A stretch of DNA of 64,000 bases from an uncultured Planctomycetales bacterium (GTDB lineage: Bacteria > Omnitrophota > Gorgyraeia > Zapsychrales > Fredricksoniimonadaceae). Positions 5,025-62,400 of this stretch are shown in pieces (within the stretch, counting starts at the first letter, position 1; the number at the start of each line of letters is the position of its first letter). Both the position numbers and the translations under genes were made by a program. The stretch lies in assembly GCA_964583975.1 (NCBI GenBank), contig CAZOXU010000003.1, positions 7,805-71,804 of the forward strand, read 5' to 3'. The notes beneath the pieces were generated by a model, which ran no database searches, was not told the DNA's origin, and was given only the letters and a program-made list of their open reading frames with translations.

Positions 5025-5034
5025 TTCTACTTCG

Positions 5035-5085: not shown

Positions 5086-5109
5086 TTAAGCAATGTAATT
5101 AAGAGGGCT

Positions 5110-5361: not shown

Positions 5362-5420
5362 CACGCTTTGCAGAGCTTGCTGCTGCGAAGCTAAAAGCGA
5401 AAGCATTTTAGCGAAGCAGA

Positions 5421-5507: not shown

Positions 5508-5552
5508 ATAACCTTGGTTTTCATCTAAAAAAATGTTACACTTTTCTTAGAT

Positions 5553-5879: not shown

Positions 5880-5889
5880 TTAATTCTTT

Positions 5890-10895: not shown

Positions 10896-11353
10896 GAAAA
10901 CCTTCTCGGAAGAATTTAAGATTGAAAAATTGGGATTATTCTTCGGCAGGATATTATTTTGTAACCATATGCACACAAAATCGTTTTCCATATTTAAAAA
11001 ATCCTGACATAAACAATATACTCCATCAAACGTGGTGTGAATTAAAACAGAAATATGACAATATTGTGTTGGATGAATTTATCATCCTGCCCAATCATAT
11101 TCATGGAATCATTATCATCGTAGGGGCGGACCTATGTGTCCGCCCACAATTAGGGTCGACCCCTACGTTGGGCGAAATGATCCGTTGGTTCAAAACAATG
11201 ACCACAAATTATTTTATTCACGGGGTAAATAAATCTGGATGGAAACCATTCTTGGGTAGATTATGGCAACGCAATTATTACGAACATATCATCCGTAATG
11301 AACGATCTCTTTACGACATGCGACGATATATCACACATAATCATATGGAATAA
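10892..11353 (+). CDS. REP-associated tyrosine transposase (RAYT; IS200/IS605-like Y1 HUH transposase)
   Basis: 153 aa. HUH motif LPNHIHGII. Catalytic Tyr region WQRNYYEHIIRN. ATG overlaps comM stop (ATGA). Confidence 0.7.
   Translation: MRKPSRKNLRLKNWDYSSAGYYFVTICTQNRFPYLKNPDINNILHQTWCELKQKYDNIVLDEFIILPNHIHGIIIIVGADLCVRPQLGSTPTLGEMIRWFKTMTTNYFIHGVNKSGWKPFLGRLWQRNYYEHIIRNERSLYDMRRYITHNHME
11120..11166. repeat. REP-like palindrome GTAGGGGCGGAC..GTCCGCCC..GGGTCGACCCCTAC embedded in-frame in the RAYT gene
   Basis: Perfect outer inverted repeat GTAGGGG/CCCCTAC and inner GGGCGGAC/GTCCGCCC. Encodes VGADLCVRPQLGSTPT, inserted between the HUH motif and the downstream conserved helix. Confidence 0.6.
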
Positions 11354-11368
11354 TTACCGTTGAAACAA

Positions 11369-11404
11369 AAAAGAGGTTATCGGTATTAGCGATAACCTCT
11401 TTTT
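11369..11404. terminator. bidirectional intrinsic terminator hairpin (AAGAGGTTATCG-GTATTAG-CGATAACCTCTT + T-run)
   Basis: 12-bp perfect stem flanked by A-run and T-run, between convergent genes (RAYT on plus, coiled-coil gene on minus). Confidence 0.7.
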
Positions 11405-32400: not shown

Positions 32401-35400
32401 ACGTTCTTGCATCACGCAGATAATCTTCCCAGACCGCATAACTATTCGTAAGATTTAAAACTTTGATCTCATTAGCTGGAATACCAGACAGACCGCTACT
32501 GAGAATCTGGGATAATGTTGATTTTCTCGTTCCTCTTTCTCCTGCGATTACAATCACATACGGTCTTGTTATTTGATCCTCAGATATGGATATTTTCCTT
32601 ACACCATCAAGTATCCTGTCGCGGATATTGCGCAGAATCATGAGTTGGTCATCCTTATTATTAAATCGGTGATGAATGTAGGTGGTGATCACAAAGGCGA
32701 AACCTTGCCGGAAACCGAATTGCGGGAAGAATAAAATAGCTAAATAATTAAACAAAGTAATAAACAAAATATTATGCCATGGTGGTGGCTGAGGAGCATT
32801 TTTCGTACGCACAAAATGCAATGCAAAAAACACACTCCATGTGACTAGTGTTGCCAACCATACTGGCCATACGATCATGAGCACTAGATTTGCGCTCCAA
32901 CCTAATACTTGCTCAATCCAGGCTTGATGCTTACGATTAACACCCAATCGGTCTAATACAACTGTCAGCAATGGGATCATCCCACCTGTTGGTTGATCTT
33001 CTTGAGAGTTTTTGATTAAATTTCTCCAATCGATCCCTTCACTTTCAGCAATAGATGTCAAGAATACCGATACTCGTCGTCGGTTTATAACAGTAGAGGT
33101 GACATCATCATTATAAAAAACCCTGTCGTTATTTATCTTCAACAATCTTTTGATCATCGTTTTCGATAGTCTTTTTAATCCATGTCTCACACTCAGCGCT
33201 TGGAATATAATTTCCAATTGTGAGCCTGACAATCGAACAGAAGATTCATCAATAGCATCTGCTCTCCTTACATGCTCAGCAAAATCTTCCTCTGTTTTCT
33301 CAACAGCTGGAATTTCTTCACCCACCATCTCTCGCCAATTAATTCTTAAATGTTCTGCAACTAAAATCACAAATGCGCAGATGTATTGCAATTTTTCTAA
33401 AGAAATACCTAGAGAACGGACAAAAGCTCTATCAACGACAAGTTGAGGCACGCCTAAAATGTAAGCAATCATTGATCGCTGCAAGAATTTGAATTTTGTC
33501 ACAGCATTAATGCTTTCAAGAATTCGTTCTAACTGAACAGGTTCTAAGATAGGAGTTTTGGGTGCTCTTTCGCGTGCTGGCTTAACAAACGTTCTAAAAA
33601 ACTTAACCAATTCCATTCTTTGTTGGGACGCTCTTTTAGCTGAAGGCCACAAACATGGACTTAAGCTTTCAATAGTAGTTTTATAAAATTGAATAAGCCT
33701 GAGACGGAATTCTTTGTACTTTTCTCCCGTTGTATCAGACTCTATTTCCGACAACATTTTCTCATTGATGCCTATCCTGTGAGCGATATCCTTATTTTTC
33801 AAAGATTTATCAAACAAAAGCTGAACAAAAGATCTTATGAAAAATAGCTCTATTCCTCTTAATGAGTTGTTTTCAATGATATCTTCATCAGCTTTCTCAA
33901 GACCTAAAATCCTCTTCCAAGGAATACGATTGGTTTCAGTGAGAGCGATCAGGGTTTGTGTGACGCGTTTTTGACGTTCTAATACTGCAGCAGGTCCCTT
34001 ATCCTTAATATTCGTCAAAAGATACGTTTGTACTCCTGCATGTTGGGCTATATCAGCCTGGGTCAAGCCTGCTTCCATGGAAAGAACCTTAAATAAAACA
34101 ACAAGCTGTTCTTGAGTAAATACCAACACTGGAACTTGCGCCTCTACTTCCTTTTCCAATTCATCTAATATCCCCATCCACCTTAGACGAACTTCTTCTC
34201 CGGCTTGATATAAATCTTTTGCATTCTCTGTGCGTCGAACACCAGCAGAAGAATATCCTAATTTTTCAGCCATATAATCAGTTGATACATATCGCAAAGT
34301 CTGTTTTATTTTTAAACGGCGTTCTCTTAATTTATTTCCATCTTGTACCACCACCTTAGGTGATTCTGCTGCAATTGAGACGACCGATACTGCTTGAAGT
34401 TGAGTAGGCAAAATTTCAGTAACCTTTCGGGAAACTAAGGCTTCTTCCTGCTGACGAATTCTATCTTGTTCAATATGTTGTAATTCCCTGATTCTTACTA
34501 AGATTCCTTTTTCTCTTAATAAACTCTCTAAAACGTGATCATCAGAGATCTGTAATATCTGCTTAAACATATCCCAATCAAACCTGGCTTCATCGGTAAA
34601 GATGCCAATCAAGACTTCAGGAGTAAATTGGTGCGGATCTCGATGGTCGCGTTTTCGTTGCACGTCCTGATGGGCTGCTCGTTGTCGACCTTCGCGTTGG
34701 TTTTTCTTCCATGTGGCACCAACCAAATCATTCGAACCTATCATTCCACGATATTGAGAAAATGGAAGGTAGCCATTCTTTGCGCTTCGGCTATAAATCA
34801 TATGCCAACGATTTTGGCCTACTTTGCGAATATAAATGTGCTCCATATCTAGTTTTAATCTTGTAAAAACATCGATGACCTTAAAGAAATTCAAATAATA
34901 CTTCTTACCTTCTATGGTAATGGAGAAGTGTTTGAGATAGGTCAGCGCTTTGTGATTAGCATCTTTAACTTTTTGACTCTTCAATACTAAACAAAGTGCT
35001 TCATAAGCACAGTTTTGTTCATACATTTTCTCTTTTTTCTTATCGGCAACTATTTTCTCTTGCTCTAAAACTTGATCGATATTAGGAATCTTTGCTCGGC
35101 CGCTTTTCATAAGCTCCCAAGCTTGTAGTTTTAACCACTGGGCATCGGCTTTATTGATAATCGTTCCATTGCATACAGCCACTAAATAAGCTTCTGGCCA
35201 ATCTCTTTGGGCAGCTACATCAGCCAAACTGTACCCATACTCCCTAAATGTTCTGGGAACCCCTCTTAAATCCATAGCATCAAATTCTTTATAATCAATA
35301 GTTGGTACAAGACCTGTGGGAGCTGCCTTAGGTTCTGTTTTGATCTCTTCTTTAGGTTTTACCTTGGGCTTAAGTATCACAACAGACTTTTTGATATCAG

Positions 35401-44400: not shown

Positions 44401-47400
44401 AGAAAGTTGGGCTCAAAGATTTAAGCAGCTTCTCAAACGCATCAATGCCCGCTTTGCCAAACATCCCCTGTCTGCTAAAGAGCTCAATAAAATTATTGAA
44501 GACGCTCGGGAAGAATATCATGCTAAAGGCAGTCGTTGATACTAATGTCCTCGTTAGTTCGCTTCTAAAAGGTACGACTGCTAGAAATATCATCGCCACA
44601 CTCACCCTCAATAAATTTACTCTTGTACTCAGCGAAGATATTTTTGAAGAGATTGTATTTACCTTACGAAAACCTCGATTAGCAGAATTTATTCCTGAAT
44701 CAGATATAATTGTGCTGTTTGCGTTACTGCACCAACGTAGTTTATTTGTTAAACCGAGCAACATTGTTAACATTTGCAGAGACAAGAAAGATAATAAGTT
44801 CCTGTCTTGCGCTTTAGCGGCTAAAGCTGACGTTATCGTCAGCGGAGATAAAGATCTGCTCGTGCTTAATCCCTTCGAAGGTATTGCAATTATTTCTCCT
44901 ACAGAATTTCTGATCATGCTGTACAAGGTTTGAATCCGAACTATCGCTTTTTTATTCCATGGCGTCCAGTCTTTGAGTGGAACAATGAAGGTTCCCAGAA
45001 ATGGACCAAACAAACGCCAAAGGTAAGCTTCTTCATATAAGAAAACAACCTGGCCTGACCAATTCAAATGAACAGCTTTGGGAGGAATTGCCCCTAAATT
45101 TTGTTTAAACCGTATAGGAGAAACAAGACAGAAGAATATAAAATGCACCATATATAAGCCAAAAAATATAAAAGCAAAATGTCCTACTATCGGTAAATAA
45201 AAATTAGTGAGGAATAAAACCATTAGTGATGGCAAGGCAATTATAAGACTTGCAAATTTATTGATCATTAAAAGAGCAAAAATCCAAGTGTCGTTATATT
45301 TAGATGGATTTTGCTTAAGATATTCCCCCCATGAAAGCGATCTAGTAGGCACATTTCTCTTCTCCCAAATCATCCAATAGACTGTTAACAGCGATAATGC
45401 CATTCCCAATGTAGTAAAGCCCACCGTGCTTCCACTAGCTACCAAAGCCGCTGATCCAATAATTCCTATTGGCAGAGCTGCGAATGTAAAACCACCTTGG
45501 GTTGATTGAGGGGTTGGATCTTTTTGAAGGTTTTGGACAGTCGGTCTTTGGGTCCATTGTTTTAATTTATTCCAGACAAGTGAAGCTCTAGCCTGCCGCA
45601 AGGCACCTTCCACCCTTTCTTTTAAATGTTCCAGCAACAGTCTGACATAAAGCTCCTCAGGGTGTTGAACAGCAGCTAATTTCACAGTATTAATCAAATA
45701 ATCTTCAACCACGCTCGAAGCATCGATCTTACCGATCAGAAGATTTGCTTCATCTAAACGGCGCAAAACCTTGCCCACTAAAAGTTCTCTGTTCTCTGGA
45801 TTTTGATCTACTTCCTCTAAGCGGCGCTGGGCGACATCAAGCAATTGCTCAGCCCAAGTTAAACGATTTTCATCAGAAGATCGTATCTCCTGCCGAGCTA
45901 AATCAAGCAAGGCCCCATGTTGCAAAGCAATCCCAGCATTGGCAATTTTTACCGAGTTGATATTGGCGCTTAATAAATGACTTGGTGTAATGAAAGAAAT
46001 GTCTGCTTTTCTAGTGAAACGTGTGTAATTCGAATATGAAAAAACACTAACTGGAAGATCAAGATCGTAAACGCCTTTAGGTTCTTTCATTGCTCCATCA
46101 ACAACAATGACTAGATCTAAATCCGGAGGGAATTCACGGAAACCATAAATATAGCTTCCCAAAACATAAATACTCCACACTTTCACATTAGGACCGATAT
46201 GTTTATAAGCCATGTCTTGAGCCCATTTGACAAGCACATCAGAATTAATACTATTAAGTCTCTCCACAAAAATAGTCTTGGCCCCGTCACTAAATGGGCC
46301 GTAAATAGTTTGGTTGATCTGTTGCAAATATTCCGGGGGCATCAAACGTTTAAAACGAGGATCTAATACCATCGGTTTAAATTGCCTTTGCCGTCGAGAT
46401 ATCCAAGTTAATTCAGATAACTGCGCAAGTGTCAAGTCATAGCGCCTGGCCAACAAACTTCGTACTTTTTGTACAGAAAGTCCACTATTACCCGATGCCT
46501 GCTCCCGACCCACTAAAATGGCAGCGACACTACGCAAATCTCCTTCAGTCAGCCAGAAAATCAGTTCATCATTAATTCTTGTGGTTAGGGCTGGATTATC
46601 TAATGTTGTTCCAGCTAAACCATGAAGAAGTGAAATAGCTATTTCACCTGGTGATTTACGACGAGATCGATAAAGAAATCCTAGAACTTTATCAAGATCT
46701 CTTTCAAGAAACGATTTTGGAAAATCTAAATACGCTGGGAATGTAAGAAATTCTTTGGTGTGCGAAGAGTTGCGCAAAAATTCTTTGATCTTACGTGTGA
46801 TGCGGACAATCCAAAACCAGTGTCTAGAGAATTCAAAACGGGATGAGTTATCTTCAATCAATTTAAACTTTGCTGTTCTCCAACCAATCCAATGCGCCAA
46901 CCAACTCACAAGACTTCCAATACGATGTTGGAAAATAATGCTTAAGAAGATTGCAAGAATGAGCACGGCATCAACTAATCGTGTGGATATTCCCAGAAAA
47001 GGTGCCGACAGCCCACTGAAGAATCCACCAATACCAAGGACCGTCAAAATCTTAGAAACAACTCTATTGTGAGAATCCTGGGAATCTGCTTTTTGCAAAA
47101 ATTCACTCATACTATCATCGGTGCGGATCCATATATCTAAAGAATCAACACCTTCGGTCAGTACGAATGTTACACTTACATTATTGTGTTCTTCATTAAT
47201 ATAATAGTTGACCCATGGCGGGATGTAACTCTCTCCATTGATAAGAATCACTGGCAGACCTTTAGGATCAGAACGAGGTTGATCTTCTTTTACTACCTGC
47301 CCCACATAACTTATTTTAAGGTCTAAATGATGCCTATCTTTTCTATCTATAACAAACAGATTAAGTTCGCCGTCTTTGTCTAAATAAAACACCCCTTCAT

Positions 47401-50400
47401 TATATGGATTGATGGCACACCCAATGGTTTGCCGTTTCTCTAAATGAATCGTGGTCCTAGCTAAACCTTTAGAAGAAGCCTGTAATTTGATTGTCTTAAG
47501 ATGCGGCTTGGGACGCTGTAAAATTCTTTGCTGCAACATTCCCGATTCAAAATCAATAATAGAACCTCGTCCCCACAAATAGGACAAAGTAATTTCCCAA
47601 TAAATAAATAATAAGTTGTGTGCATAAACGATAGCCCAGACATACTTGGTACACCCCGTAAAGAAATCTACGAAGAATAAAAAGTTTAATACAAGCACAA
47701 TAGAGGCATTGGCCATTACTCCCACAAGCGCTTTAAGACCATGGACCTTCCAGGGCATACCATGAAATAAACCAACCCCGATTCGCTTCCAACCATAATC
47801 ACTGCGTCGCCCATTTTCTGGCCCCACAACAAACTGTGCTAAATGATTTGGAATAAGGGCTGCTATAAATAAAATCTGTATGGTAAAAATTTGTAGGGAA
47901 CTTGAATTTCCTAACATCATAGGTAGATTAGCGACCATGGAGGTAGCTTGTTTCCTATTGCGTCGAGTCTTCACTGAAAACCAAGCATACACAACTAAGA
48001 AAATAAGCCATCCCCAAATCCATACTTCAGCCCAATTCCTTACTAACCAATCCCATAAGTTACTTCCCCATCCAGCTGATGCCAAAACGGTTATACCAAC
48101 GATCCCCAAAGGTAGGGCTGCAAATATAAAAACATGCATTTTAAGATAATATCTCAATAAATATAGGCTTAATGCTGCAACGCTAAGCAGGATAATGCTA
48201 GTATTGCTCCAGAAATTATTGCCATCTGCTTCAAGCAATCCTACCCAGGCCTTCTCAGGATTAGGAACTTGCTTAATATCTATATATTGGCTTTTTTCTT
48301 TGGAACTCAGTGCGGCGTACTCTTGTGGGGCAATTAAATGATAAATAAATTGACCATCCTCTGTTTTAAATTCAGTAAGCTTGACGTATTTGAGTTGATC
48401 TTTTAAACCACTTTGACTCTCCATCCACTGAATAACTGCTTGTATCTGTTCAACATGCTGATTAAGAGCGTGCACAAATTTACGCGCACCCATTTTATTT
48501 AAAATCTCATGTCGTTTTTGGTTTTGGTTCTCTAGCCCAAAGACCGTAACGTACCTATCTACGCACATGGGTAAAGATAAACGTGGAGTTAAAGCTATAA
48601 ACCTAGCAGGATCCATCGACAAAGACCTGGCTGCATCCGCATTTAACGGCAGGATTATTGATATTTGGCTTGCCCTTCTTGGCTCGCTTACAATATGAAG
48701 CTTTCCTTGATATAAAAACTCCGCAACCATTCGGGCCGCTTGCAAACCAGTTCCAGCACCATAAGCAAAACCCTGAGCCATTTGTCCTCTAAAGCCATAA
48801 TTCCCTAAACTCAATTTTTCATTCTGGTCAATCCCAATGCCAGTATCTGCAACTGTAATAATTACAATTCCATCATGTTTTTGTAAGCTAATGGCAACTG
48901 TTGAATTTACTAAAGAATATTTAATGGCATTGTGAATCACTTCTCCAATTACAACGTCCTTTAAATTAAGTTCGCCATCTTTAGATTTGATAAAAATCTT
49001 CTGATCAGGAAGATCCATCTTTAAAGTGATGTTTTTGCTTTTAGCAAAGCCTCCTAGATACGTCCCTTGAACCAATTGCATAATCAATTCATTTAAATCC
49101 AAGAGGTTTTCTGTAATATCGCAAGCCGTGCTAGTGGCTGTGACTTTGGACTGATTAAAATTAGCGCCTGACACTAGTTTTTCTGGTTCTTCACTCTTTA
49201 CAAACGGCTTAAACGATAAATACTTCATAGCCCAGAATGTCAAGACAGCCGAAGCGATATGGACCCAGAAATTAATGTATAAACTTTCACCTTCAAGGAT
49301 TCGAGTGCGGAAATTGTCCTTGGTCTTACCCATCTCAACCAAATTAGCCAAGATCCACAGGAAGCTAGCAACGCTCAAACGGATCATCAGTGAACGTCGT
49401 TTTGATTGCTTATCCGTTCCATTAAGGTTTAAATCTTTGCCCTTACGCATAAACCCGAACACAGATATAAGATAGAAATATCCGGTAAGGGCTGGAATAC
49501 TTAAAATCCTTAAATACTGTGCATTAAACTGACTCCACAAGCTTCCATCAGCATCCATACGTTTAAAATAACGGAGGAAACTGTTATTAATGAGATCCCA
49601 ATTACCAACGATATCTTTGCGAATAATAACAAGAATGGTTAAGGCTATAGCAGAAACGAAAGAAATTACCGTTGGCCAATAAATAAACGGACGTGTTTTT
49701 ATCAAAGACTGCTTCTGATAGAACTGTTTATAAAATACATACCCACCTAAGACAACAGCATCCAAAGCCAACATGACAAACATCAGATTCTCATAAATAA
49801 ACGGCCTAGCAATGGTGGATATTGGGGTCACCAACCACGTTATTGTAGTTAGAATGCCCAGCAATGCCATTCGTAGAGCCCAAGGCATCTTTAAAATTTG
49901 CGGTTCTTTGTAATCTACAGATTTTTGTGCTAGAAACACACTACGAATACGGCGAACATGTGGAGCATCAATTTCCTCACGCTTAACTTCCCGATGGATC
50001 GCCTGAATATTTTCAAAACCAATCTTCTTTAGCATTCCTGGAATTCGTCTGGCAGATTGACGATTGGTGCGGCTTACCCAACGTGGCGGAAGAATATTGG
50101 TGATAATAATCCATCCGCCGGGCTTCAATTCATTAAACGCATGGCGATAAGCCGCTCTTACTCTTGACCAACGTTCAAACCAAATGTATTTAAGCCAATT
50201 AAAAAGCTCTACTACAGGCCCTTCAATAGAATGATATAGGTTTGTATTAATGAGCTGCAACCATGACAGTGGATCATTCCATCGTGGCTGTGCATTCCAA
50301 GCTACAAAATCACTGACTCGATGAAACACAACAGCATTACTGCCTGGATATTCTTCTTTAGGAAACCAACGTTTTTGGGTAGCTACATCAATACCAGTCC

Positions 50401-53400
50401 ATCCATACTGGATTTCAGTATCATCAGTACCAAATAATCCATCGTCCCATCTTTCCGTTCTATACTCAAATGCCACATGACGATGCTCGCTAGCCCCTGC
50501 AGCCTTCAAACCTCGGTAAGGCGAACCATTTTGCCCTGCTCCAACTTCCGTGACTACCCCGCCATTGATCTGAATCTTCTGTCCAATCAATTCAAACAGA
50601 GCATCTTCATGTTCATTTCCACTGACACCTGTTGAAAATTCACCTAATAGCTCCTTTGCTTGAGCCAATTCTTCTTTACTCCATCCTTGATCTAAATCTG
50701 GACGAAGTTTGAAATCTTCAATTTGTCTAATGAGATACAAATCATTAAATAAATGAATGCCAATAACAATCAGAGCAGTAAGGCTAAAAGGTTGGGTGAT
50801 TAAAATATACGGTAATAATGGCAGGGCAAAACGAAGTGCAGAGATTATGTCATTCCCGAATGCTTTTATCGGGAATCTAGTGCCTGGATCCCCGATTAAG
50901 ACTTTCGGGGATGACAATAAGTTTCCTCTCTTCTCTATATAGACATGCCAATAACCGAGGCCTAAAGCAACCAGCGCAAAGGTTGCATAGGATAAGCCCC
51001 ATGGCAATGCTGCATTTAACCCAAGGGCGATAGCTACTAACGCTGGTGCCTCTAAGAACAAGACACTTAACAATCCAATGACTGGTTGTTGAATATAAAG
51101 ATACATTAAACTTGATGGCGCTTGGGGGGCCTCTCGAACAACAGTCTGTGCCGGAAGGTGGGCTGGCGCTGGTTTTTCTGCTTTAAAAACACTTTTAATA
51201 TATTTCAACACCCACATCAACGCTGTTGCAACAGCAATTCTCTTTTGCTTCTTAAACATTCTTAAGAATATTGCTGCTGATAACATGAGTGTTCGAATCA
51301 AGGTTTTTGGCATAATGACCAGAAACTTCAACTGACCCCAGACTCCTTTAAAATCTCCACCCTCTGTTATAAATTTCACAAGGCGCTTGAATTCTCTTGG
51401 ATAAAATTCTTTGGCTAATGACCAAATTAAGGAAGGTTGATTATTAAAATCTGCTTTGGTATCAGACAATTCATCAGAAATTTGTAAAAATAACATGAAA
51501 TCGTTTCCAAATTCGACGTCCTGTACTTTGTCCTGTGGAAAACGACCTGCAAAAATATTCTCTAATTCCAAAAGACCACCAAGACGCGTTTTCGCTTTTA
51601 GAATCTCCCACATTTTCTCTACAGTTGGATATAATCCGCTTTCTCGCTCTAGAATGTACGACTCAAATAATTCTTGTGAGACTCTAAGCAAAATATCGCG
51701 TAACTTCTTTGTATCAATTTCGTCCTGCGGCATTTGCACTAAAATCTGGTTGGCCTTGTTTTCAAAATCTTCAACAATCTCTGCTCGATCTCGTTTATCA
51801 TCTTTTGCAACCAATGGAGCTTCGATTTCCTGTAATTGCCTTTGAGTTACACCCTTACTTATTAAAAGACTAGATGGAATCACTGGGAATCGACAAAAAA
51901 GCCGAGACTCAGCAAGAATACCCTTCACTTCATCCAAAGATAATTTATGTCCGAATGTGTCTAAAACTACATCTCCTGTGCGCACATATTGGGTCCAAAG
52001 AATCATCAGTAAATCAAATCTAGACTGCTTCACTATATTTAAATCAACACTCAGCATTTTTACCGCAATATATCCAAAAATACGTGTGGTTGAGTTTACC
52101 TTAATTCCATAACCGCTCCCGTCTTGGGTATCTCTTTTACCATTCATCCAGATTTCTCTAATAAGTTTGAGAAAACTAAATCGACGATCTGAATTTTTCT
52201 GTATTAACCAAAACATGTAAACAAAGATACTAATTACTAAGAAGGCTATTGCGCCCCATACCCAATACCCTGAAAGAACAACCCATGGATAAGCTAACCA
52301 TACCCCAAATACCAAAATACCAACAGTTGTAAGGAATGCTGATAAGACATGCCCACTTTGCGCATTGTTTAACTCAACCCCATCGTTTGTTGCTGTCAAA
52401 TCATGGGCAGGTTGTTCTGGGGTTTCTGGCTTCTTGAGAATTAAGATTGTTGATTCTTTTATTAAGAATTTATACCCGAATTCCTTTTGGATAATTAATA
52501 GAGCCCGCTCTAACTGAGCAATCATCCGGATGACATAAAATTTATCAACCAGTTCCTGAAGTATTTTGTGTTTCTTTATTTCTAATTCTATGACCCCATG
52601 CTCTAAATATGGTAGAAGCACTTCATAAATATCATGCTTTTCTAATTCCGCTATCGACCCAGGTGCTTTTAAGCTTCCCTTTTTACGACGATCGGAAATC
52701 CATTCTTTAATATTAGCGATTTCCTCAATATCAAATAAAAGCGAGGGAGGTTCTTTCTTTGCTTTGGCAGGTCTACCGCCAAGTAAAGTTAAATTTAATT
52801 TCAAAGACTTTGCCCGAGAAAAGATAGCAGTAGGAGTAACACCAAAATATTTCGCTAATTGTGAAGCAGTGGGTGGTTGTTCTTTCGTACTAAATAATTT
52901 ATGTGCCTTACGGAATTTAGATACGGTCAACGTTTTTCTTCCAGGGCTTAACTTTAACCGCAATTGTTTTGCTTTGTTAATTACTTGCTTACCAGTGATC
53001 TTTAAAACTGTAGCCAATTCAAAAGCCGTAGGAGCTTTTGCGGATTTCATTAGTTTCTGATAGGTCTCTCTAAATTGTTTTTTCGACACCTTTTCAGTCT
53101 CAGACCTTAGTTTTAATCGAAGAGCATCCGCACGCTTCATAACGGCTCGGTACTTCAAACCAGTAGCTTTGGCTAATTCTCTTCCCGTTGGCAACCGAGC
53201 TCCATCTATCAAACTCCTATAAATAGCGCGGAATTGTTTCTTAGGCAAAACTTTACGCATCGGAGTCAGTTTTAATTTCAAGTCTTTGCTTCGTTGGCGC
53301 ACAACGTCTGGGGACAATTTAAGCTTCCTAGCCAATTCATCTTTATTTGGTTGCTTGCCTTGGCTTGATAAGTCTTTATAGGCAGCAATAATATCCTTAT

Positions 53401-56400
53401 TACTTATGACCTGTTTTTTGTCTCTTACAGGAAGCTGCAATTCATTTAGTCTTTTATTAACAGCTTGGCGGCTAATTGATAACTTATTCATTAGATCTCT
53501 TTTTGTTGGCAATCTTTCTCCAACGCGTAACTCTTGATAGGCTGAAATAAAAACTGATTTACTGACTAGGTAACGTTTAAATAATCTCTTAAATACTAAT
53601 AAATTATGCCGTACATGTACTTCGATGGCCGCCTCTAAGGCTAATTCTCGACTTTTTGTCTTCTGGAATACTTTTTGGAAGGCACGGTTTGTGCGGGTAA
53701 CCAAATCACGTAGTTGTTTTTTATCTGCTGCGGTCAAATCTTCAACAACAAGATTTTTCGGATCGATTTTCTTGTCCTTATGCAACGTTACTAGCGCATC
53801 TGGTGGCGGCAAATCAGTAGATTGACGAATGAATCTCTCTTCCTCCCTGGCGGCTTGGAAAATAAAATCTCTCACAGTACCTGTTTTTATAGCTTTAAGT
53901 AATCGGGGCAAGAATTCAATATTCATACCCGCAACAGCTGACTCACTCTTTAAAATTTCTTTTCTCTTCGCAAGAAGCTCTTTAAGCAATTGAAGTCTAG
54001 CAAGTCTGTTTTTTGCAGCAATTCTACTAGCTAAATCTGCTTGCGCTTGCCTTGCCATCTGACGTTCATGTTCTTCTTGAAGCTTTTGTGCCTTCTGCAA
54101 TTGGCGTTCAATGCGTTTAGATTCTTTTTCAATGGCAGAATCCTTTCTGGACTTTCTTTCCTTAGAATGCTTCTGCTGTGCTCTAGCCATTCGTCTGGCT
54201 TCTTTTTCTTGTGCGTCTTGCATTTTTTGTTGTTCTTTTTCTTTGCGCTTGGCTTCTTTTTGTTGTGCCTTCAGTATTTCTTGCTGTTGTTTTGCTAACT
54301 GACGAGCTTGTTTTTCTTGGGCAAGTCGTTCATTGCGGGCAATTGAAATTACCGATTTTGTGTGCATTTGCGAAGGAATATTTTGGGTTAAATTGATCAA
54401 TAGCCTCTTACCCTCGACATCTTTAATCGGATTACCCTCTGCATCAGCAATGAAAATAGCCCAGGTTCCAACGCCATTAACAAAACGCACATCAACTATG
54501 GAATCAGGATAATCACCAACGATCACTTCTATTCCAGCGAATTTAAGTCTTCTTCCTGTTAACTTTCGGTTAGGATAAATAAAATCTTTTAGAGTTTCTC
54601 TTAGATTAGTTCTGCCAATATCCGCTACCATTTCAACCAGTTCCCCTAAAACAAATGAATCAGGGGTTGTTGCAGGCTTTGGAGCATAAACAGGGTTTAA
54701 CTCTATGGCTCTGCCTGTGCTCAATGATACGGTTGTTTTAAATAATAGGCGCTTAGGTGTGACTTTAAGAATATTTTTAACAAGCACCCGGCCATTATTT
54801 TCACCAAAAAAGGCGATCGATTCTTTGCCGCCAAAAGTCAAATACCCAGCCCCATTCAATTTCTGACCATAAAATTCCATGTGCTTGGTTACCAAATGGT
54901 ATTCCTCATCAACAACGTAATTAAGATAGCAGGAAACAAATTTAGCTTTCTTGTTATCCCAAACCAAAGCAAAGCGTTCATTTAAATCAGATGTTAATGA
55001 CCAAATTTTAATAACTAAGCCATCTCTAAAATAAATAAGGACACGTTGATTTCTATAAGCTTCCAGGCGTCCCCAAGACTTTTGTTCTTGACGATTGGGC
55101 ATTGAACCATCTACCAACATGCGACCGCCGCCAAAACGTAGATTACCAATAGGATCAAGCTGCGTCTCCAATACGACATCACCAAAGCTCAAGAGCTTCT
55201 CACGTTGCAAGCTTCCAGCATAGACATGCAGCACCTTACCTGAGTAAGCTTGCATGATCCTAAAGAACGGATAAACCTTACCGGTTTTGGTCATCTTAAT
55301 TCTAACGGGTAAACCTTCAGACATTTCAAGTTCATAATTCTCGTTGCCATGCGCTGTAAACTTCCCTAAATATTTTCCTACGATAAGCTTACCGCTGAGC
55401 GTCAAACGTCCAGTAATGATCACATGCCCAAGCGCTTTAAGTTGATGCTCGGTTGGATTAGACGGTAAATTTCCTAAAGCAATCTTCTTTAATGAATTCT
55501 TCGTAGGCGTAACCCAAGGAGAGTTCTTGTTATGTCGAAGGGCCATTGCCTTCTTGATATCTTCCTCAAGAGCTTGATATTGAGGCAGATTGCCCGATAG
55601 ATCCTCAACCTTTAGCTTCTTAGCTGCCATCCCCATCATGCCCTTACCTTCTCGCCAAACGTTTAAGTTATGTTTCAAATGCACGATAATAGCGGCCAAA
55701 TAACCCCCAACCCAGAAACCTTTCAATCGCCCTATTTTATATGCTTCTGTTGCACGAGCGGCTAAGTCTGTAAGTTGCGTTAAACATTCGTTTTGTTCTG
55801 TGGCAGATAATTCATCGACTTTAACCCAACCTCTCTCAAAAATAAGCACTTCAGAATCATGGCCCTGTATAAATTTCAAATCTCCATTAATTGTATGTGC
55901 GCGCAACTCCTCTACTACGGCCGCCATCATCCAAATAAGAATACCGAGATTGTATCGACCAACGCCAACTCTTGATGCTAAATTGTATAACCACTTCCAG
56001 CGTGACTGCAGACCAGCGACATGACGTGGGCCATAATGCATCTTTGTCTGTGTATTAAATCTCAACCCTGCAATACTCATTAAAAAGAACGTTATTGCCA
56101 TCAAAATTAGGGATAGCGCCCTATTATTAGACGTAAATGTCATTCCCGAATGCTTTTGTCGGTAATCTAGAACCTGAGTGACTGGATCCCCGATAGAAAC
56201 TTTCGGGGATGACAATAATAGGGCGCTGTCCCCTATTTTTTGAATTACTTTCCCAATCGGTTTAGGATTATGTGTCCGATAAAAATTACGCAAACGTTCT
56301 ACGGTCCACTGGTAAGGAGATTGGATGAGCTCTACATCGATATTGGTTTTGAGTAATTGCAATAAACCTGGTCCAACTATATCATTATCAAAAATCAATA

Positions 56401-59400
56401 ATACCTCTATATGTCCAGCAGCTCCTTCAACTTCTACTGCAAATCTTTTATAGCTCACTTGGGCTTGCTCATCTTGTGCGATCTTAAATTCCCTGGCGTC
56501 TTGAGGGTCATTAATTCCTTGCCTTAATAAAGCGTATCGCTGCTCTTTTCCTTCTTGATCCTTGATGACTAAATAAGGTCTAACGCCAATCGGCTTGATC
56601 TTTATGAAATCAAATAAGAATCCTTCCCAAACTCCTTCGGCATAAGCATAGAATTTCTGGTCAAAAATGGTCTTTAGAATTCCTTCCTCGGGCATATTCT
56701 TACACGTAATAACCACTAATACTTCGTGCCCCTTGTTATCACCAACACGATACATGCTTTGATTGTCTGCAGTCTCTACCATCTCCAATAAACCCCCACT
56801 ATTTTCGACAATGAACATGCCCACCTTGCTGAAATATTGGAAGTTTAATTCATCCATTAGTTGACGGAATCTTGGATATTTCTTAGCATCATCCCCCACC
56901 AAAATATCTATTAGTTCACCGAGCTTTTCAGCCAAATCAACAGAACTTTCCTTAGCTAAATCAATTAAATCATCACGCAATTTTTGGACTGTTGCCAAAT
57001 CTTCATTGACTTTACTTATTTGCTTGGAAAGTTCCTCTTGGGCAGCCAGCGATGCTTGCACGGCTTTTTCATAATCTTCTCCCGCATGGCCTTCGGCTGC
57101 CAGATGCTTGGCCTTATCTAATTTCTTATGTGCTTCTTTTTCTAATTCTTTAGCTTTGGTGAAACTTACTGAGGGGTTTTTAAACATTCGGAAATCTTTT
57201 ACCAACTTATCAACGAGTTTGACTACTTGAGCAGCTCGCTCATGGTAGGCAATGATGTCTTTGATTTCTGTGGAATCATAAGGAACCCGGCCAAAACTCA
57301 AACGGCGGGAAATGGCCTCAGGTGCTGAGCAAGCACTTAAGAAAAATGCAAAAAATAGGCTAATCAATGCCATCAGACTCCAAGGCATTGATCCAGATTG
57401 TGCTGATGCTTGGGCTTCTTTAACAGTATGGGCTTTTAATTTTTGCCACACCATGCTCGCACGAGTGAAGACCAGAGCAATTTTTAAATCTTGATAATAC
57501 GCTTCTAAGATTTCACGGATTTGTTCATCAGAATAATATCCATCTAAATATCGAATGGTTTCACTGAAATAGAGATGTTTTATAGCTGGTAGAAGCAAAG
57601 CTGAAGATGGGTCAATGCCTATGAGAAGAAGGTTTGCTTCCATCATCCGACGAGCTGATTTCGAACGCAAGGTCAAAAAATCACCTTCATCGCTTGTTGG
57701 GTTTTCTTTCGTGATACTCATAGCACTCTTCGCATCCTTAAGAAGCTCCGCTGCCGTGACCACATTATTATCAGAATGTTTGCGAATTCCCGTCATCGGC
57801 CAATCTCGCAGACCGTCTGCTTTTAAGAAAACACCAACATTAGCGATGATGGTTAAATGATGGGTTTTCTTTGCCAATGACTCAGCAGTCATAAAAAGAA
57901 TGTCCGCACGAGATGTATGCAAGGCATACTCACCATTAAAAATTCTCCTGTTTAATGGCATAATTCTTACTTTTAGGGTGTCTTGTAAATTAATCCCTTC
58001 AACAATGACTTCAATATCAAGATCTGCTGGAGATTGTTTAAACCCATAAACAAAACTTCCTACCAAAATAATACTAACGATACGGCCTTGGCGATTGGTA
58101 TGTTTATACAGCTCTTGGGTCAACATTTCTCTTAAAGCTTCTACATCAATCATTTCAACGCGTTTAACAAATTCAGCAATTTGTTGATTGTCCATTCTTC
58201 CATAAATCGTACGTTGTCTGATTTGCTCTGAATAAGAGGGCGACGGTCCAGCTTCTGCAAATTCTTCTAATAAGCGAACATATTCTAATTGGGTCAGTTT
58301 ACTAAAGGCCGGAGATTTAACCCATTTCATTAATGAACGAATTTCGTCACGGCGTTTCTTGTTAACGTTTTTATCATCAGATTTTACAAGTTGAACGTAA
58401 TAATCTTGCACCATAGGCACATAAGATTGGGCTCCTTCCCCTTGTGATGCTCCGGCGATGATAACCGCCCAGGCACGCCAATTATTCATTCGTAACCAAG
58501 CTATTAATTCTTTCTTGATTTGACCATTGATTGATTCATCTTCAACAAAGCTATAGCTTAAGCGGAAAAGGTCTTGCAACCTTGCATCGGTAGCTAAAAA
58601 TCCGAATCGACGGGCACGTTGCAATTTTTTAAGGAGTTTAGGAATCTCTTTAACTTTGAAAGCTTGTAGATTTTCAGGATATTTTGCTCCACCCAAGAAT
58701 AATCTTGTTTCAGATGATAAATGACGCCAATTATCAAGTAGTTGTTTGAGCTTGTGCACTATTCCAGTTATTTGGTAAATAGTAATTATGACAACCGTCA
58801 GTATCCCAATGTCAATTAATGCATAAAGGACACCTTTCATTCCTTCTGCCTTTTGCAAGATAAGGAAAAATGAACTTTCAAGTAGTGTGGCTGCTAGAAA
58901 CAATAGTACTGCTGGGACAGAAATCATGGCGCGAACCTTAGGTAAACTAAAATACGGTCGTTCTTCGCGAAGCAGAATGTCGATTTGCTCATCAGGATTA
59001 ACTAGTACTACCGTCACCTTATTTTTTGGTTCCAGATATAGCTGAAATAGGTTTGGAATATGTTCCCCTTTCACCTGAGCAACGGGAACATAATCACCTG
59101 TTGTCCCCTGATTACTTGGCACAGTAAAATCAATTCTTCGTCCTTCATGGGGAATGACAAATGGCGTCTCAGTATCAAATTTAATACCCTCACCTAAATC
59201 GCGATATTCCTGCATCACACATAATTGTCCTGCTTGATTAAAATAGACAATTACGTCATTTTTGTGGTTAATCAAACGAATTCTCAGGGTTTCTTTCCTA
59301 TTGAGATTAATGCGATAAATACTCGCTGGAAATTCCTGAACGCGCACCTGAAGGGCATCGAAAGTTAATGCAGCACTTGATTTTCTTCTAGGATGTCCTG

Positions 59401-62400
59401 GTTCATATGGAACTCGATAAGTAATAACACCTTCTTTATTAATGATTTCAGTAGGTATTTGGGAAGCTGCAAATCTAATCCATGTACCTCTTCGGGGAGA
59501 AAATTCTGTGACAGCCACATCTTGAGGATCAATGGACAAGCGTTGTTCTTCATAACGCATCGAGAGTTTTTGTTGATACCAATCTCCTAAGAAATTAATT
59601 AAATCACCTTCGTTACTGTAGACAGCTATCAAAACTTCAAAGACAATCATGCCAAGATTTAAGGCTGCCAAAAACTCTGCTAATCGAGGCGCAATAACAC
59701 CTTTCGATAGAACATCAATAATAATAGCAGCCAATATATTACCCATAAACCCGGCTAGGGCCCGTATGCCCTTAGTTTCCCACGGCATGCCGTAGAACAA
59801 CCCTTTTAAAATGCGCCCAACGCCATAATCACGTCTGCGTCCTTGATCGGGTCCGGCAATCAAGTGGCCAAGTTCGTGAGGAATAATAGCTGGGCTCAAA
59901 ACAATTCGTGCAATCCAATTCCCCCACCAACCACGACCTATATGCTCAAATAAACTGGCTGCTAGCGATGGTGTCGGTGCCAAAGAAGTATTAGAAGCAG
60001 CGGCAGACCGAGTTTCAGGTTTTTTTAGAATTTTCACCTCAAGTTGGGTTACTTCAAACTCATACCCATGTCTTTGCTGAATAATCCCTAGAGCCTTCTG
60101 TAATTGGGGATAATTACGAATTATAAGGAATTGATCTCGCAACATATTAAGTATGCTGCTTTTTAACGTTTCTACCGGCATTCTTTCTACGTACATCAAA
60201 AGAAGCTCAATATCATGTTCTTCTAATTCCAGTAGTGAACCTTCAACCTTCAAGCTGCCCTTATTCCTACGATAATCAATCCAATATTCAATATCAGGAA
60301 CTTCTGACGCTTCAAATAAGAGTGAAGCTGTACTGCTTATAGGTTCTTTAGCAACAACAGTGGTGCTTAGAAGAGAATCTGTTGCATGGGGCTTAATCTC
60401 AGGAACAAGGATTTTAGTTACATATTGTTTCATCTTCAGCCTAGTTTTTCTTTTGGGTATAACAATTGGCTTAGGCTGCTGCTTAGGCAGAACCACAGAT
60501 TCTTGACCTTTTAATCGCAAAACTAATCCCAGAACCTTGCTACGAACGCGTACAGCTTTAATTTTCATTCGTAATTTATCAGCGAGTTGACGGGCTGAAG
60601 GGGGAACTCCTTTGTTTTGTATCATCAAACGCTTATAGGCCATGCCAAAAGACTTTCGCGAAACTTCTTTTCTAGAAAGGCGTAATTTCAAGCCTAATAA
60701 ATTGGCTCTGCGACGAACCCTGACTTCAGTGATCTTAAGTTCTTCGCCCATGGCTTTAGGCGTAGGGTATCTATTCTTTTGGGACTTTAACCGTGTATAA
60801 ACCTCTTTATATTTCTCGTCAGAGACATGATTTCTAGCTGGACGAAGTCTTATTCCTAACGCTTTATAGCGTTGCATAAAGGATTCATATGATAGGACAA
60901 GCGCTCTGGCCATCTGTCGTCCGGTTGGAAGCTGTCCTTTGTGTGTTTTCTTAAATATCCTGTATGCACGTTTTATTTCCTTGTCTGAGACTGTCTTTTT
61001 TAAAGGTTTGAGTTTTAAATTCAATGCTCTGCTTTTCTTACCTACCCATTCTTGAGACATTGTAAGGATCTTCGCCAGCTGAATAGAAGTAGGCGCTCTG
61101 CCCTTATGTCGTCGTTTGAATTCACGGTAAGCAGCTCTGAAATCTTTTGCTTTAACTGGAGACCGTCTTTTTCCACCTAACTTTAATTTGAGTTCTTTGG
61201 CTTTGCGGGATGCTGCCTTGTGTGTCATGCCAACCGAATCAGCCAGTTGCTTTAAAGTGGGGATGCTCTTACCCTTCGACAATGCACGATAAGAGGTTAG
61301 AAATTCTTTCTTGGTAACTCTATGTTTGAAAGCTAAATAATTGTATTTGGCATGAACTTGAATAGCTGCTTCAAGGGCTTGTTGGCGATTATTGGTCTTT
61401 TGGAAAACTTTCTGGAAGGCACAATTGGTTCGCTGAACTATTTTAAGTAATTGTTTTCGATTAGTAAATGTCAGTGCTTGGATTTGCAACGACTTTGGAT
61501 TAATTTTGCGGCCTTGATGCAATTTAATCAACGCATCAGGGGGCGGCAGATTCGTTCTTCGACGAATAAACGTCTCTTCTGTCCTGGCTTCTTGAAGCAG
61601 AAACTCTCTTAATTTACCCGCTGCCATGGCTTCTTTCAGCTGAGGCAAACGTAAGGGATTTAAACCAAGCGCAACTGCTTGACTATCTCTATCTACATTA
61701 AACTGAATAATTTCTGCACCGCCAGTCTCATCTAGATCTTCAACATCATCATTCATTCGAGAAGCTCCACGCAAAACAGTGTCCAGCAATGAGGCATCTT
61801 GATTAGAATCTTCCTCTTCTTGACCTTTTAAAAAGTATTCTTTTAATTTTCGTAATGCTCGATCTTCAAGCTGCTGGATCCGTGATCGTCGAATTTCTGG
61901 ATAAAATCTCTCGCTGATTTGTTTAAAAGTTAATGGATGGGTTCTAAAATACCTTAAGAAAATAATATTAGCTTCCCTCTCACTTAAAATCTGAAAAAGC
62001 CTTCTCTTCCAGGCACTATTCAAGTCTTCTAAATCACTTCGCACAAAATCATCCTTACTTCGAGGGTCTGCCACACGATCTTCAAAGCCCCTATGATCGC
62101 CTTTATTATCCATCCAGCCTTTATCTGAAAATAATTTCACCCTTTGGCGTTCTTTACGAGACTTAGTAATGACTTCATTAAATTCCTTACGAATCCACCA
62201 TTCTGCATAGGCTGCAAAACCACTGTTTTTCTTTAACATCTCTAGGTCGCTAGCTTTTTGGGAGGCTCGAAACAGTCCTAGATTACCTGCTAGAATCAAT
62301 TCCATGCTCGAGATTCCAACACGATAAGCACTAGCAAAATATCCATATTTATTAGCGATATAAATGACATACGGAAGGTTGGCATTAACCAAACGAGTAA

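Follow-up and report, generated by a model that had tools for sequence, protein, structure and literature searches.

Within the window analysed here, a 64,000-nt stretch of DNA, lies a giant ORF (Table 1). Its reading frame continues without a stop through the 30 nt preceding the first ATG, so the real start codon could be beyond the window edge. A hydropathy scan gives ca. 53 TM-like hydrophobic segments along the predicted protein. Its Pfam domains are HATPase_c, M48 (Peptidase_M48, aa ~7098-7221), Bac_transf, PEMT/ICMT, methyltransferase, NTP_transferase, His_Phos_1 and Sigma70_r4, and a GDSGSP motif is present at aa ~6823; SecA-DEAD, C39, dockerin and TSP3 domains were not found in the ORF with Pfam. 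The mutL neighbours of the ORF have 60-75% identity to Omnitrophota MAGs.

Table 1. Features of the giant ORF and of its duplicated segments (all on the minus strand).
Feature	aa	Position (nt)	Basis or remark
Giant ORF, 13,519 aa		23411..63970	counted from first ATG in window
Triplicated ~125-aa domain	67-190, 190-316, 317-440	62651..63772	before copy A only
Divergent sigma-70-family domain	476-725	61796..62545	Pfam, NCBIfam
Copy A N-domain, helical	763-883	61322..61684	motifs LPPPDAL, TNxAFQKVFQKT
Copy A HTH array, five three-helix units, net charge +61	884-1155	60506..61321	unit HMM, Pfam, AF2
Copy A basic disordered 55-aa linker + winged-helix-like C-domain, ILKKPET end	1156-1210, 1211-1320	60011..60505	
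Copy A first TM segment after KKPET	1321-1359	59894..60010	still alignable with copy B
Block X	1355-2198	57377..59908	BLASTP to X', z 113; continues copy 1 of duplicated block
Charged K/E/Q-rich segment (136 aa), probably coiled-coil	3206-3341	53948..54355	adjoins copy B
Copy B N-domain	3342-3467	53570..53947	alignment with copy A
Copy B HTH array, five units, net charge +46	3468-3733	52772..53569	unit HMM, Pfam
Copy B short linker + winged-helix-like C-domain, ILKKPET end	3734-3850	52421..52771	
Copy B TM hairpin after KKPET	3851-3900	52271..52420	self-BLASTP, MAFFT, hydropathy
Block X', paralogue of X	5365-6156	45503..47878	BLASTP, z 113

Within this protein, a module of ~560-600 aa occurs exactly twice, each time as a ~120-aa helical N-domain, five helix-turn-helix (HTH) units of ~54 aa, a linker, a winged-helix-like (WH) C-domain of ~105 aa and a TM segment. 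Copy A (aa 763-1359) and copy B (aa 3342-3900) align end to end with 38-40% identity (BLASTP E 1e-63), and chunked self-BLASTP gave three matches, all colinear: aa 763-1000 with 3342-3581 (40% identity, E 4e-52), 801-1155 with 3380-3731 (39%, E 8e-63) and 1012-1359 with 3591-3900 (33%, E 8e-39). The end-to-end alignment claimed in the initial annotation is thus confirmed, and the strings quoted there, FIRRRTNLPPPDALIKL and FIRQSTDLPPPDALVTL, are both present in the MAFFT alignment, as are the KKPET tails (ILKKPET in both copies). The Smith-Waterman score of A against B was 842, compared to 53 +/- 8 for shuffles (z = 97), while 30 other 560-aa pieces of the giant protein used as control scored <=53. 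By parts, z was 55 for the N-domain (53% identity), 40 for the HTH arrays and 34 for the C-domain. Judging from these alignments, copies A and B are true paralogues that arose by intragenic segmental duplication, the modular growth that had been proposed. The N-domain of copy A belongs to no Pfam family, is poorly modelled by AF2 (low confidence) and has one outside relative, P0003. Fold searches place the C-domain closest to, among others, PCI, ESCRT-II and ScpB/JetB-type winged helices.

The repeat units had been described as four or more per copy, ca. 45 aa long and sigma-region-4-like. They are indeed tandem, but there are exactly five in each copy, of 53-55 aa and all in register, and the unit HMM matched these ten and no further ones in the giant protein. 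Their nature as HTH domains is supported by the AF2 model, with three helices in each unit (pLDDT 73-90; the input was a two-sequence alignment and the pTM of 0.23 leaves the relative placement of the units unfixed), and by Pfam matches to HTH_11, GntR, HTH_24, MarR_2, LexA_DNA_bind and Sigma70_r3. In the copy B array these were HTH_11, GntR and HTH_24, plus Sigma70_r3 at 20.6 bits. The assignment to sigma region 4 has to be rejected, as none of the ten matched Sigma70_r4 or r4_2 in Pfam and Sigma70_r3 was matched instead; within this stretch of the ORF, region 4 was matched only by a true sigma4 at aa 660-711. Sigma70_r3 was the family matched by most units (3/10), with 28.3 bits in region A (cutoff 25.3), and a single unit passed the Pfam gathering score. 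Searching PDB sequences with the ten-unit profile retrieved mainly region 3 of SigF, HrdB, SigA and FliA, with weak E values (1e-3 to 0.1). The closest known relatives of the units would therefore be, weakly, sigma-70 region 3 domains. In helix 3, nine of the ten carry K/R at the same alignment column.

The duplication probably does not end with the module. Block X, where a membrane segment bearing a HELGH motif is followed by a beta-rich domain, a TM pair, a helical region and a nucleotidyltransferase-like motif, matches aa 5365-5486 with 33% identity (6e-18) and aa 5719-6156 with 28-29% identity (3e-34) by BLASTP, while the middle part of X and X' is only weakly similar (z 4.9). The HExxH motif is degenerate in X' (NHLAQ), and the HELGH segment has no match to a Pfam peptidase family, even at E 0.5. 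The full duplicated block would then probably be ~1,430 aa (aa 763-2198), with the ~840 aa of X past the module, so that the unit of growth would be ca. 1.4 kaa and not the ca. 0.5 kaa of the supermodule first annotated, of which the duplication stands and the size probably does not. X and X' most likely belong to the block, a view that hangs on colinearity across the weak middle. Between copy B and X' there is an insert of ~1,465 aa (aa 3901-5364), and the second copy of the block was most likely split later by this insertion of ca. 1.5 kaa.

What precedes the two copies is different. The initial annotation depicted a symmetric preamble, with a triplicated domain and a charged segment ahead of each, and this describes copy A but not copy B. 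The N-terminal triplet (z 14.6 for N1-N2 and 6.8 for N2-N3; no Pfam family) has no demonstrable counterpart before copy B, where pairwise z was <3 within aa 2840-3205 and neither the triplet HMM nor its hhalign profile found a match. A charged segment does exist ahead of both; the one adjoining copy B contains 29% K+R and 15% D+E, whereas that of copy A is short (aa 440-475) and not adjacent to the module, as the sigma domain (250 aa) and then an acidic linker intervene. This sigma domain consists of region 1.2, sigma2 (…AYAEWWIRK…) and sigma4 (…RSRIQQLEDRALRKLK); sigma3, which would lie between the last two, is missing, and the hallmark motifs are intact. It matches Pfam Sigma70_r4 at 36 bits, as well as r1_2, and NCBIfam TIGR02937 at 58 bits (cutoff 42.9, covering positions 2-164 of 165), and has a single homologue at E<=1e-8, 28% identical. 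Copy A lies directly behind the sigma2-sigma4 domain; copy B has no sigma domain.

The off-diagonal signal expected between the copies is clear at the protein level and almost missing in the DNA: megablast found no match, and word-7 blastn only 66% identity over 263 nt and 71% over 89 nt. TRF detected no tandem DNA repeats in the HTH arrays, and the sole small ones of the region (54192-54266) lie in the charged segment before copy B. Nucleotide identity between A and B is 0.52, 0.64 and 0.39 at first, second and third codon positions. With almost no repeat left in the DNA and third positions near saturation, the duplication is, by this sequence measure, ancient. At such divergence, the 49-53% identity retained by the N- and C-domains, the preserved number and register of the units and the absence of any stop or frameshift indicate that both copies have been kept under purifying selection. 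The module is nearly unique: among 1.84 billion representative proteins, searches gave 17 weak matches, and none for the C-domain.

As a whole, these data are best explained, with a confidence that we would put at about even, by an ancient block duplication that produced cytoplasmic, membrane-held arms binding nucleic acids. We infer that both modules are cytoplasmic because the first TM helix is followed by three K/R and preceded by none, the sigma domain shares the same loop, and the arrays are strongly positive (+61 and +46); this topology comes from the positive-inside rule applied to a crude scan of hydropathy. Each module would be a multivalent arm that most likely binds DNA and that the giant protein would anchor to the inner membrane; its five weakly specific HTH domains and one winged helix would grip extended DNA through many basic contacts. 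Copy A would extend or stabilise the DNA contacts of a sigma2-sigma4 domain that has no sigma3 of its own or, alternatively, keep either DNA or RNA polymerase close to the membrane, and copy B would play a like role without a sigma domain.

A rather unlikely alternative is that the protein is a polyprotein or membrane-tethered precursor from which proteolysis frees the sigma domain and HTH array, which would then work in solution as a sigma or transcription factor, in effect regulated intramembrane proteolysis within one gene. The hallmark residues retained by the sigma2+sigma4 domain and the order sigma domain, acidic linker, module A and TM segment with HELGH would fit, and the protease could be this HELGH segment or the M48 or trypsin-like (GDSGSP) domains further on. 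Embedded peptidases have been proposed to cleave giant proteins (West-Roberts et al., bioRxiv 10.1101/2023.11.21.568195), and there are ECF sigma factors with fused C-terminal extensions, some of which comprise 5-7 TM helices (PMC7826278). However, the HELGH segment resembles no Pfam peptidase, its motif is lost in X', copy B comes without a sigma domain that could be freed, and no cleavage sites are known. That the gene is merely tolerant to expansion and the block neutral filler, with HTH units that now bind nothing, is highly improbable; most giant proteins of Omnitrophota are unique in sequence and rich in repeated content, and homologues elsewhere are nearly absent, but the 40% overall identity and the signs of purifying selection described above speak against a relic.

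Other possibilities concern the ligand. HTH and WH domains also act as protein-protein modules (PCI, ESCRT-II, kleisin partners), and sigma region 3 domains touch the RNA polymerase core besides DNA. The units might act as decoys of sigma3, sequestering RNA polymerase or docking it at the membrane, or the enzyme domains of the giant protein might use them as generic beads for interaction; their closest sequence relatives and the fold matches of the C-domain are in keeping with this. We consider this unlikely, since the charge of the arrays and the near-invariant basic residue of helix 3 suit the binding of a polyanion better, and the weak sigma3 similarity is limited to positions 5-39 of the 78 of the Pfam profile. 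The highly basic arrays could also bind RNA, for example the 40-kb mRNA of the gene itself or rRNA, in the manner of SelB, whose four winged helices bind SECIS RNA. This is very unlikely, given that the matches are only at the fold level and non-significant (Foldseek E at least 0.014) and that the sigma domain next door points to DNA. Finally, a kleisin-like module, with a ScpA-type SMC-neck binder as N-domain and a kleisin-type winged helix as C-domain bridging an SMC-like ATPase, was suggested by the match of the N-domain profile to the N-terminus of archaeal ScpA (6ivh_A residues 4-45, E 0.019), with a common pattern P-D-L..L....P..L...DLT. It is largely refuted and extremely improbable: hhalign of the module or the N-domain alone against a 15-sequence ScpA profile gave probabilities of 0.1-0.2%, Pfam SMC_ScpA did not match, no SMC domain was found in the giant protein or its neighbours, and the WH matches are generic.

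Among known systems, small helical DNA- or RNA-binding domains are arranged as beads in SelB WH1-4 and the SNAPc Myb repeats, both among our fold-search matches; the likeness is at the fold level, with non-significant E values and no sequence relation, and binding is here a prediction. With Sigma-70 region 3 (PF04539, a domain of three helices in sigma factors of groups 1-3), the dominant match class in the PDB sequence-profile search, the units share the pattern helix, G-R/K-x-P-T, helix (xxQLAxxL), turn, helix. Nevertheless, five copies follow sigma4 in tandem here instead of one between sigma2 and sigma4, and the units match only the first half of the profile, most of them below the gathering score. 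There are also some uncharacterised tandem HTH-array proteins with the same ~53-56-aa period and G-R-x-P-T … L-G-(V/I)-S … K-L pattern: P0001, P0002 and P0005 with 8-13 units, P0004 with three and a gene adjoining rplT/rpmI, and P0007, a multi-TM protein of 4,580 aa that repeats the theme of the giant protein, with an internally duplicated array (a three-unit module) and His_Phos_1. These five score on Sigma70_r3 (50-108 bits for relatives of the array) and on HNH_repeat (PF18780), which Pfam did not match to the units of the giant protein; neither the N-domain nor the winged-helix C-domain occurs in them. ECF-type sigma factors with C-terminal extensions, including TM ones, have been described (ECF263; Casas-Pastor et al. 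2021, PMC7826278) and also combine a sigma2+sigma4 core without sigma3 and TM helices in one polypeptide, but our sigma domain also has region 1.2, it is preceded by a TM anchor and ~440 aa of sequence in all, and the "extension" that follows measures ~12,800 aa.

Omnitrophota, the phylum of our contig, are already known for giant membrane proteins of many domains that have undergone ancient internal duplication (West-Roberts et al. 2023; Nielsen & Lui 2026, class 1 "multi-enzyme" architecture). The long proteins of this phylum are mostly membrane proteins, 65% have a repeated Pfam domain, ascribed to ancient duplication, and 80% of their sequence clusters are singletons (bioRxiv 10.64898/2026.06.07.730766; bioRxiv 10.1101/2023.11.21.568195). 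Ours conforms to them as a single ORF of >10 kaa with dozens of TM segments, many unrelated enzyme domains, internal domain repeats whose nucleotide repeats have dissolved, and almost no sequence relatives. It departs from them in having no Pfam match to SecA-DEAD, C39, dockerin and TSP3 domains and in the identity of the duplicated block, a sigma-adjacent HTH/WH module; the text of neither of these two preprints mentions sigma, HTH, DNA-binding or transcription domains. Two old, diverged copies of a large block indicate that the giant gene grew by copying large blocks.

The giant protein was compared with itself in chunks of 400 aa, each against the remainder, since BLAST suppresses self-hits. 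The two regions that the initial annotation had described as aligning end to end, here called copies A and B, do so colinearly at 33-40% identity (E down to 8e-63), and the strings quoted at the time are present in their end-to-end MAFFT alignment. The Smith-Waterman score of the two copies was 842, against 53 ± 8 for shuffles; the N-domain, the HTH array and the C-domain were each significant alone (z, i.e., standard deviations above shuffles, of 55, 40, and 34), and 30 other pieces of the giant protein, used as a control, scored no better than shuffles. An HMM built from both copies found exactly two modules in the giant protein. Four or more units of about 45 aa had been claimed for each copy; the tandem units are there, exactly five per module (ten in total with a unit HMM), but they are 53-55 aa long. 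The modular growth by segmental duplication that was proposed is correct, as judged by these paralogous modules, yet as a principle it was already known for Omnitrophota giant genes, for which many TM segments, repeated domains from ancient duplication and near-orphan sequences have been described (bioRxiv 10.1101/2023.11.21.568195; bioRxiv 10.64898/2026.06.07.730766).

At the DNA level the expected off-diagonal signal between the copies is nearly gone. Megablast gave no matches and word-7 blastn just 66% over 263 nt and 71% over 89 nt, the identity at codon positions 1, 2, and 3 was 0.52, 0.64, and 0.39, and TRF detected no tandem repeats in the DNA of the HTH arrays. The block duplication is old, as is the amplification of the units, and selection has retained both copies. 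Positional pairs of units (Ai-Bi) share 33% identity and non-positional ones 31%, that is, the former are not clearly closer, and therefore sequence alone cannot order the two events; the sole argument, equal unit number and gapless register, would place the amplification of the units before the block duplication.

Features of the giant protein and its surroundings (residues counted from the first ATG in the window; nucleotides are window positions)
Feature	Residues (aa)	Window (nt)	Strand	Remark
Giant ORF		23411-63970	(-)	13,519 codons
Sigma-70-family domain, divergent	476-725	61796-62545	(-)	near N-terminus, behind TM anchor, directly upstream of copy A
Copy A	763-1359			
Copy A N-domain	763-883	61322-61684	(-)	
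Block X	1355-2198	57377-59908	(-)	
HELGH (HExxH)	~1364-1368	~59860-59880	(-)	immediately after copy A
Copy B	3342-3900			
DNA tandem repeats		54192-54266		21- and 33-nt periods, 2 copies
Stretch between B and X'	3901-5364			~1,465 aa
~110-125-aa domain	5136-5260	48191-48565	(-)	
Block X'	5365-6156	45503-47878	(-)	
NHLAQ	~5376-5380			paralogous position to HELGH
CGDSGSPV	~6823	~43500	(-)	trypsin-like motif
XRE/HTH_19-like units	~9870-10330	approx. 33100-34400	(-)	weak Pfam match
~110-125-aa domain	10941-11065	30776-31150	(-)	
PF18780 repeats	~11056-11385	approx. 29800-30800	(-)	26.9 bits, match at aa ~11366, outside module
Further internal repeat	11059-11141, 11237-11319			paired
~110-125-aa domain	12976-13085	24716-25045	(-)	
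IS200-like Y1 transposase ORF		10892-11353	(+)	among the housekeeping neighbours
Housekeeping neighbours				accA, rlmN, birA, comM, mutS, mutL, two tRNAs

Copy A is continued colinearly by block X, which has a paralogue, X', further downstream in the protein (z 113 overall, 4.9 in the weak middle part); aa 1355-1472 match 5365-5486 and aa 1732-2198 match 5719-6156, at 28-33% identity. The ancestral block would therefore have comprised about 1,430 aa (763-2198). In copy 2 the stretch lying between B and X' is probably an insert that interrupts the block. It contains a methyltransferase-like region, a HATPase_c domain and one of the three 110-aa domains of the giant protein, and the junction falls in the TM helix after KKPET. 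The HELGH sequence is located inside a hydrophobic segment, which recalls intramembrane metalloproteases; a site-2-protease reading of this segment was discarded, as no Pfam or NCBIfam family matched.

The preambles of the two copies are less alike than had been described. A triplicated domain was said to precede both; it is found before A (about 125 aa each, aa 67-440, z 14.6 and 6.8) but not before B, where no triplication was detected by Smith-Waterman comparison of pairs, by hhalign or with an HMM built on the N-terminal triplet. Likewise, a K/E/Q-rich, probably coiled-coil segment does precede B, whereas the charged segment of A is short and the 250-aa sigma domain stands in between. The sole DNA-level tandem repeats of the region fall within this segment of B. 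The best-conserved internal repeats of the giant protein are the three copies of the ~110-125-aa domain (CVDRYV…FGLE…ARKFV…QVPDPxNAWVG, 50-63% identity), without a match in Pfam or PADLOC. The XRE/HTH_19-like units, the homing-endonuclease-associated repeats (PF18780) and the further repeat pair showed no relation to the ten units by HMM. The trypsin-like motif lies in an otherwise unannotated stretch. A link to anti-phage defence was also considered and dropped, the PADLOC matches being generic only, to a sigma domain (MzaA) and an HTH (mad1).

The units follow the consensus xVSxKxFxxAYxxLxxKxxxPTxxQLAxxLxxxxxAVxxRAKxLxLKL. AF2 modelled every one of the five units of the array with three helices (pLDDT 73-90), and matches to generic HTH families of the Pfam type (HTH_11, GntR, HTH_24, MarR_2, LexA_DNA_bind, AsnC-type) were centred on helices 2-3, so that the predicted fold is a three-helix helix-turn-helix with the HTH between helices 2 and 3. 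The pTM of the module was 0.23, and the units would therefore have no fixed mutual arrangement. Whole-module Foldseek against the PDB gave no match below E 0.014, as expected from such a beads-on-a-string model. The arrays are strongly charged (net +61 in A, +46 in B), and nine of the ten units have K/R at one particular column of helix 3.

The initial annotation had called the units sigma-region-4-like, which did not hold. At E≤1, neither PF04545 (r4) nor PF08281 (r4_2) matched either of regions A and B or a single one of the ten units; the sole region 4 match is the true sigma4, which precedes the module (aa 660-711). Membership of sigma-70 region 4 was rejected by position too: instead of one C-terminal copy there are 5 + 5 units in tandem, located downstream of the true sigma4, and copy B has no sigma domain. 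The family matched by most units was Sigma70_r3 (PF04539), with three of ten at E≤1 (best 0.004), although only over profile positions 5-39 of 78; region A reached 28.3 bits over a cutoff of 25.3, from one unit (aa ~1052-1086), and region B 20.6 bits. A search of all PDB sequences with a ten-unit profile recovered mainly region 3 of SigF (residues 115-147, E 1.3e-3), HrdB/SigA (5e-3) and FliA (0.2), all of them weak (E about 1e-3 to 0.2), and cyanobacterial SigA over positions 6-50; sigma region 3 was the dominant, though weak, match class in these sequences, and some matches cover the whole unit. By position the units are not a sigma region 3, which would lie between sigma2 and sigma4: the linker there (aa ~605-655) has no HTH, and the units come after sigma4 and a separate N-domain. 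PF18780 matched none of the ten units at E≤1. Outside proteins with related arrays reached strong scores, as sums over their units, with Sigma70_r3 and PF18780 alike (for the latter, 110 bits in P0001 and 59 bits in P0010). We would describe the units as sigma3-like three-helix HTH domains, formal membership of Sigma70_r3 or PF18780 being unproven.

The array is flanked by two further domains. The N-domain (~120 aa, helical, with motifs LPPPDAL and TNxAFQKVFQKT) is 53% identical between copies, matched no Pfam, NCBIfam or PDB sequence family and was poorly modelled by AF2. With its profile, the SMC-binding motif at the N-terminus of one archaeal ScpA (6ivh_A, residues 4-45) was a borderline match (E 0.019); a kleisin/ScpA identity was rejected, with an hhalign probability of 0.1-0.2% against the bacterial ScpA profile and no Pfam match. 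The C-domain (~105 aa, from SLLF(D/E) to ILKKPET, 49% identity between copies) was modelled by AF2 as H-H-b-H-H-b-b, and the H-b-H-H-b-b topology contained in it together with matches to solved winged-helix domains points to a winged-helix fold. In each copy a TM segment follows.

The sigma domain upstream of copy A consists of region 1.2, sigma2 (with AYAEWWIRK) and sigma4 (with RSRIQQLEDRALRKLK), with no sigma3 between the last two. Its divergence is very high, with 28% identity to the best outside homologue, and TIGR02937 matched it with 58 bits (cutoff 42.9) over profile positions 2-164 of 165, covering sigma2 and sigma4. A sigma2 and sigma4 core lacking sigma3 and scoring above the sigma70-ECF superfamily cutoff suggests an ECF-type context for copy A. 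K/R residues are absent ahead of the first TM helix, and three follow it; this charge pattern, the sigma domain and the basic arrays argue that aa ~34-1340 are cytoplasmic. We know of no sigma factor with a C-terminal extension of such scale or with HTH arrays. ECF groups with fused C-terminal extensions, including TM ones, have been described (PMC7826278).

The giant ORF has no internal stops, and a crude Kyte-Doolittle scan gave 53 hydrophobic segments. Its frame stays open from the first ATG up to the window edge (63971-64000, 30 nt), a stretch in which no clear Shine-Dalgarno is visible, and the real start may lie upstream of the window. The neighbours are ordinary housekeeping genes. The adjoining mutL is 60-75% identical to that of Candidatus Omnitrophota MAGs and mutS-mutL synteny is conserved, which identifies the host as an uncultured member of the Omnitrophota. 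The AccA of the window was found as an exact copy on one contig only, a 3-kb Logan contig of run SRR12487046. In five related Omnitrophota MAGs (loci L002-L005 and L007) a very large minus-strand ORF is also found downstream of mutL (2,300-3,200 aa where the edge of the fetched locus cuts the ORF). Neither tblastn nor HMM comparison found similarity between these loci and the giant protein, in any of its parts, and the four largest ORFs (L002-L005) showed no detectable similarity to each other. The mutL-downstream locus looks like a hypervariable site for giant genes, as judged from these comparisons of sequence.

Relatives of the module are scarce. A word-indexed search of copy A against 5.8 billion proteins found none, nor did scans of GTDB genome contigs and viral contigs for the module, or of JGI metagenome contigs with the N-domain and C-domain. 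Exhaustive HMMER of 1.84 billion representatives returned 17 hits (best E 7e-31), 16 of which cover the HTH array only and one the N-domain (a 240-aa fragment on a 779-bp contig), with none covering the C-domain. Some of the array relatives consist of tandem units alone, 8-13 in number, and one is a protein of 190 aa with three units, adjoining rplT/rpmI. Another, P0007 (ENA ERZ1426817, 18-kb contig), is a multi-TM protein of 4,580 aa with His_Phos_1 and an internal duplication of its own (aa ~780-1210 and ~1590-2040), with three HTH units of the same type per copy. The theme of a duplicated HTH array in a large multi-TM protein therefore recurs outside the host genome.

What, then, could these modules do? 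Two conserved paralogous modules are present; their folds are of DNA-binding type, they are extremely basic, and one follows a sigma domain to which it is fused. For us there is about an even chance that both are cytoplasmic, membrane-anchored, multivalent arms that bind nucleic acid, most likely DNA. The duplication and the fold are near certain components of this explanation; binding to DNA as such is more tentative, falling at or slightly short of even. The role of copy A would be to extend or stabilise the contacts that the sigma domain makes with DNA, or else to keep DNA or RNA polymerase at the membrane. The alternative to which we give most weight is that built-in proteolysis frees a sigma-HTH factor; the membrane segment with HELGH that directly follows copy A hints at this, although it matches no peptidase family. 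Next in weight would be modules that bind protein or RNA polymerase, and then modules that bind RNA. That the duplicated block is a neutral relic is disfavoured, as the copies stayed conserved after near saturation of third codon positions, and a kleisin-like module, last by weight, is not supported, the searches with hhalign against the ScpA profile and in Pfam having been negative. Going beyond the reading as nucleic-acid-binding arms, the giant protein might be a membrane-embedded organiser of transcription or the chromosome, in which a functional sigma domain, ten HTH units and two winged helices, anchored together in the inner membrane as parts of one polypeptide, hold specific DNA and RNA polymerase there, near the enzyme domains, or from which proteolysis releases a factor made of sigma domain and HTH array; we consider this speculative and rather improbable.

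Like other Omnitrophota giant proteins, this one is Omnitrophota-encoded, in a single ORF of at least 10 kaa and with many TM segments. Unlike the Archaeovorin and dockerin types, it has no SecA-DEAD, C39 peptidase, dockerin or TSP3 in whole-protein Pfam scans, and it fits better in the "multi-enzyme" class. The case bears on how such giant genes are built and on what their cytoplasmic parts do. The giant ORF is a clean example of growth by duplication of a block of >1 kaa and then insertion. It also shows that a sigma factor domain can be part of a giant protein, along with large arrays of DNA-binding-type domains; in the texts of both Omnitrophota surveys (bioRxiv 10.1101/2023.11.21.568195; 10.64898/2026.06.07.730766) we found nothing on giant proteins with sigma, HTH, DNA-binding or transcription domains. 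The 270-aa arrays make a module small enough for direct expression and testing. Should they bind DNA, transcription or chromosome organisation would come within the reach of giant membrane proteins and, were the organiser reading true, Omnitrophota giant proteins would be tied to gene regulation or nucleoid anchoring, beyond surface or prey-degrading functions.
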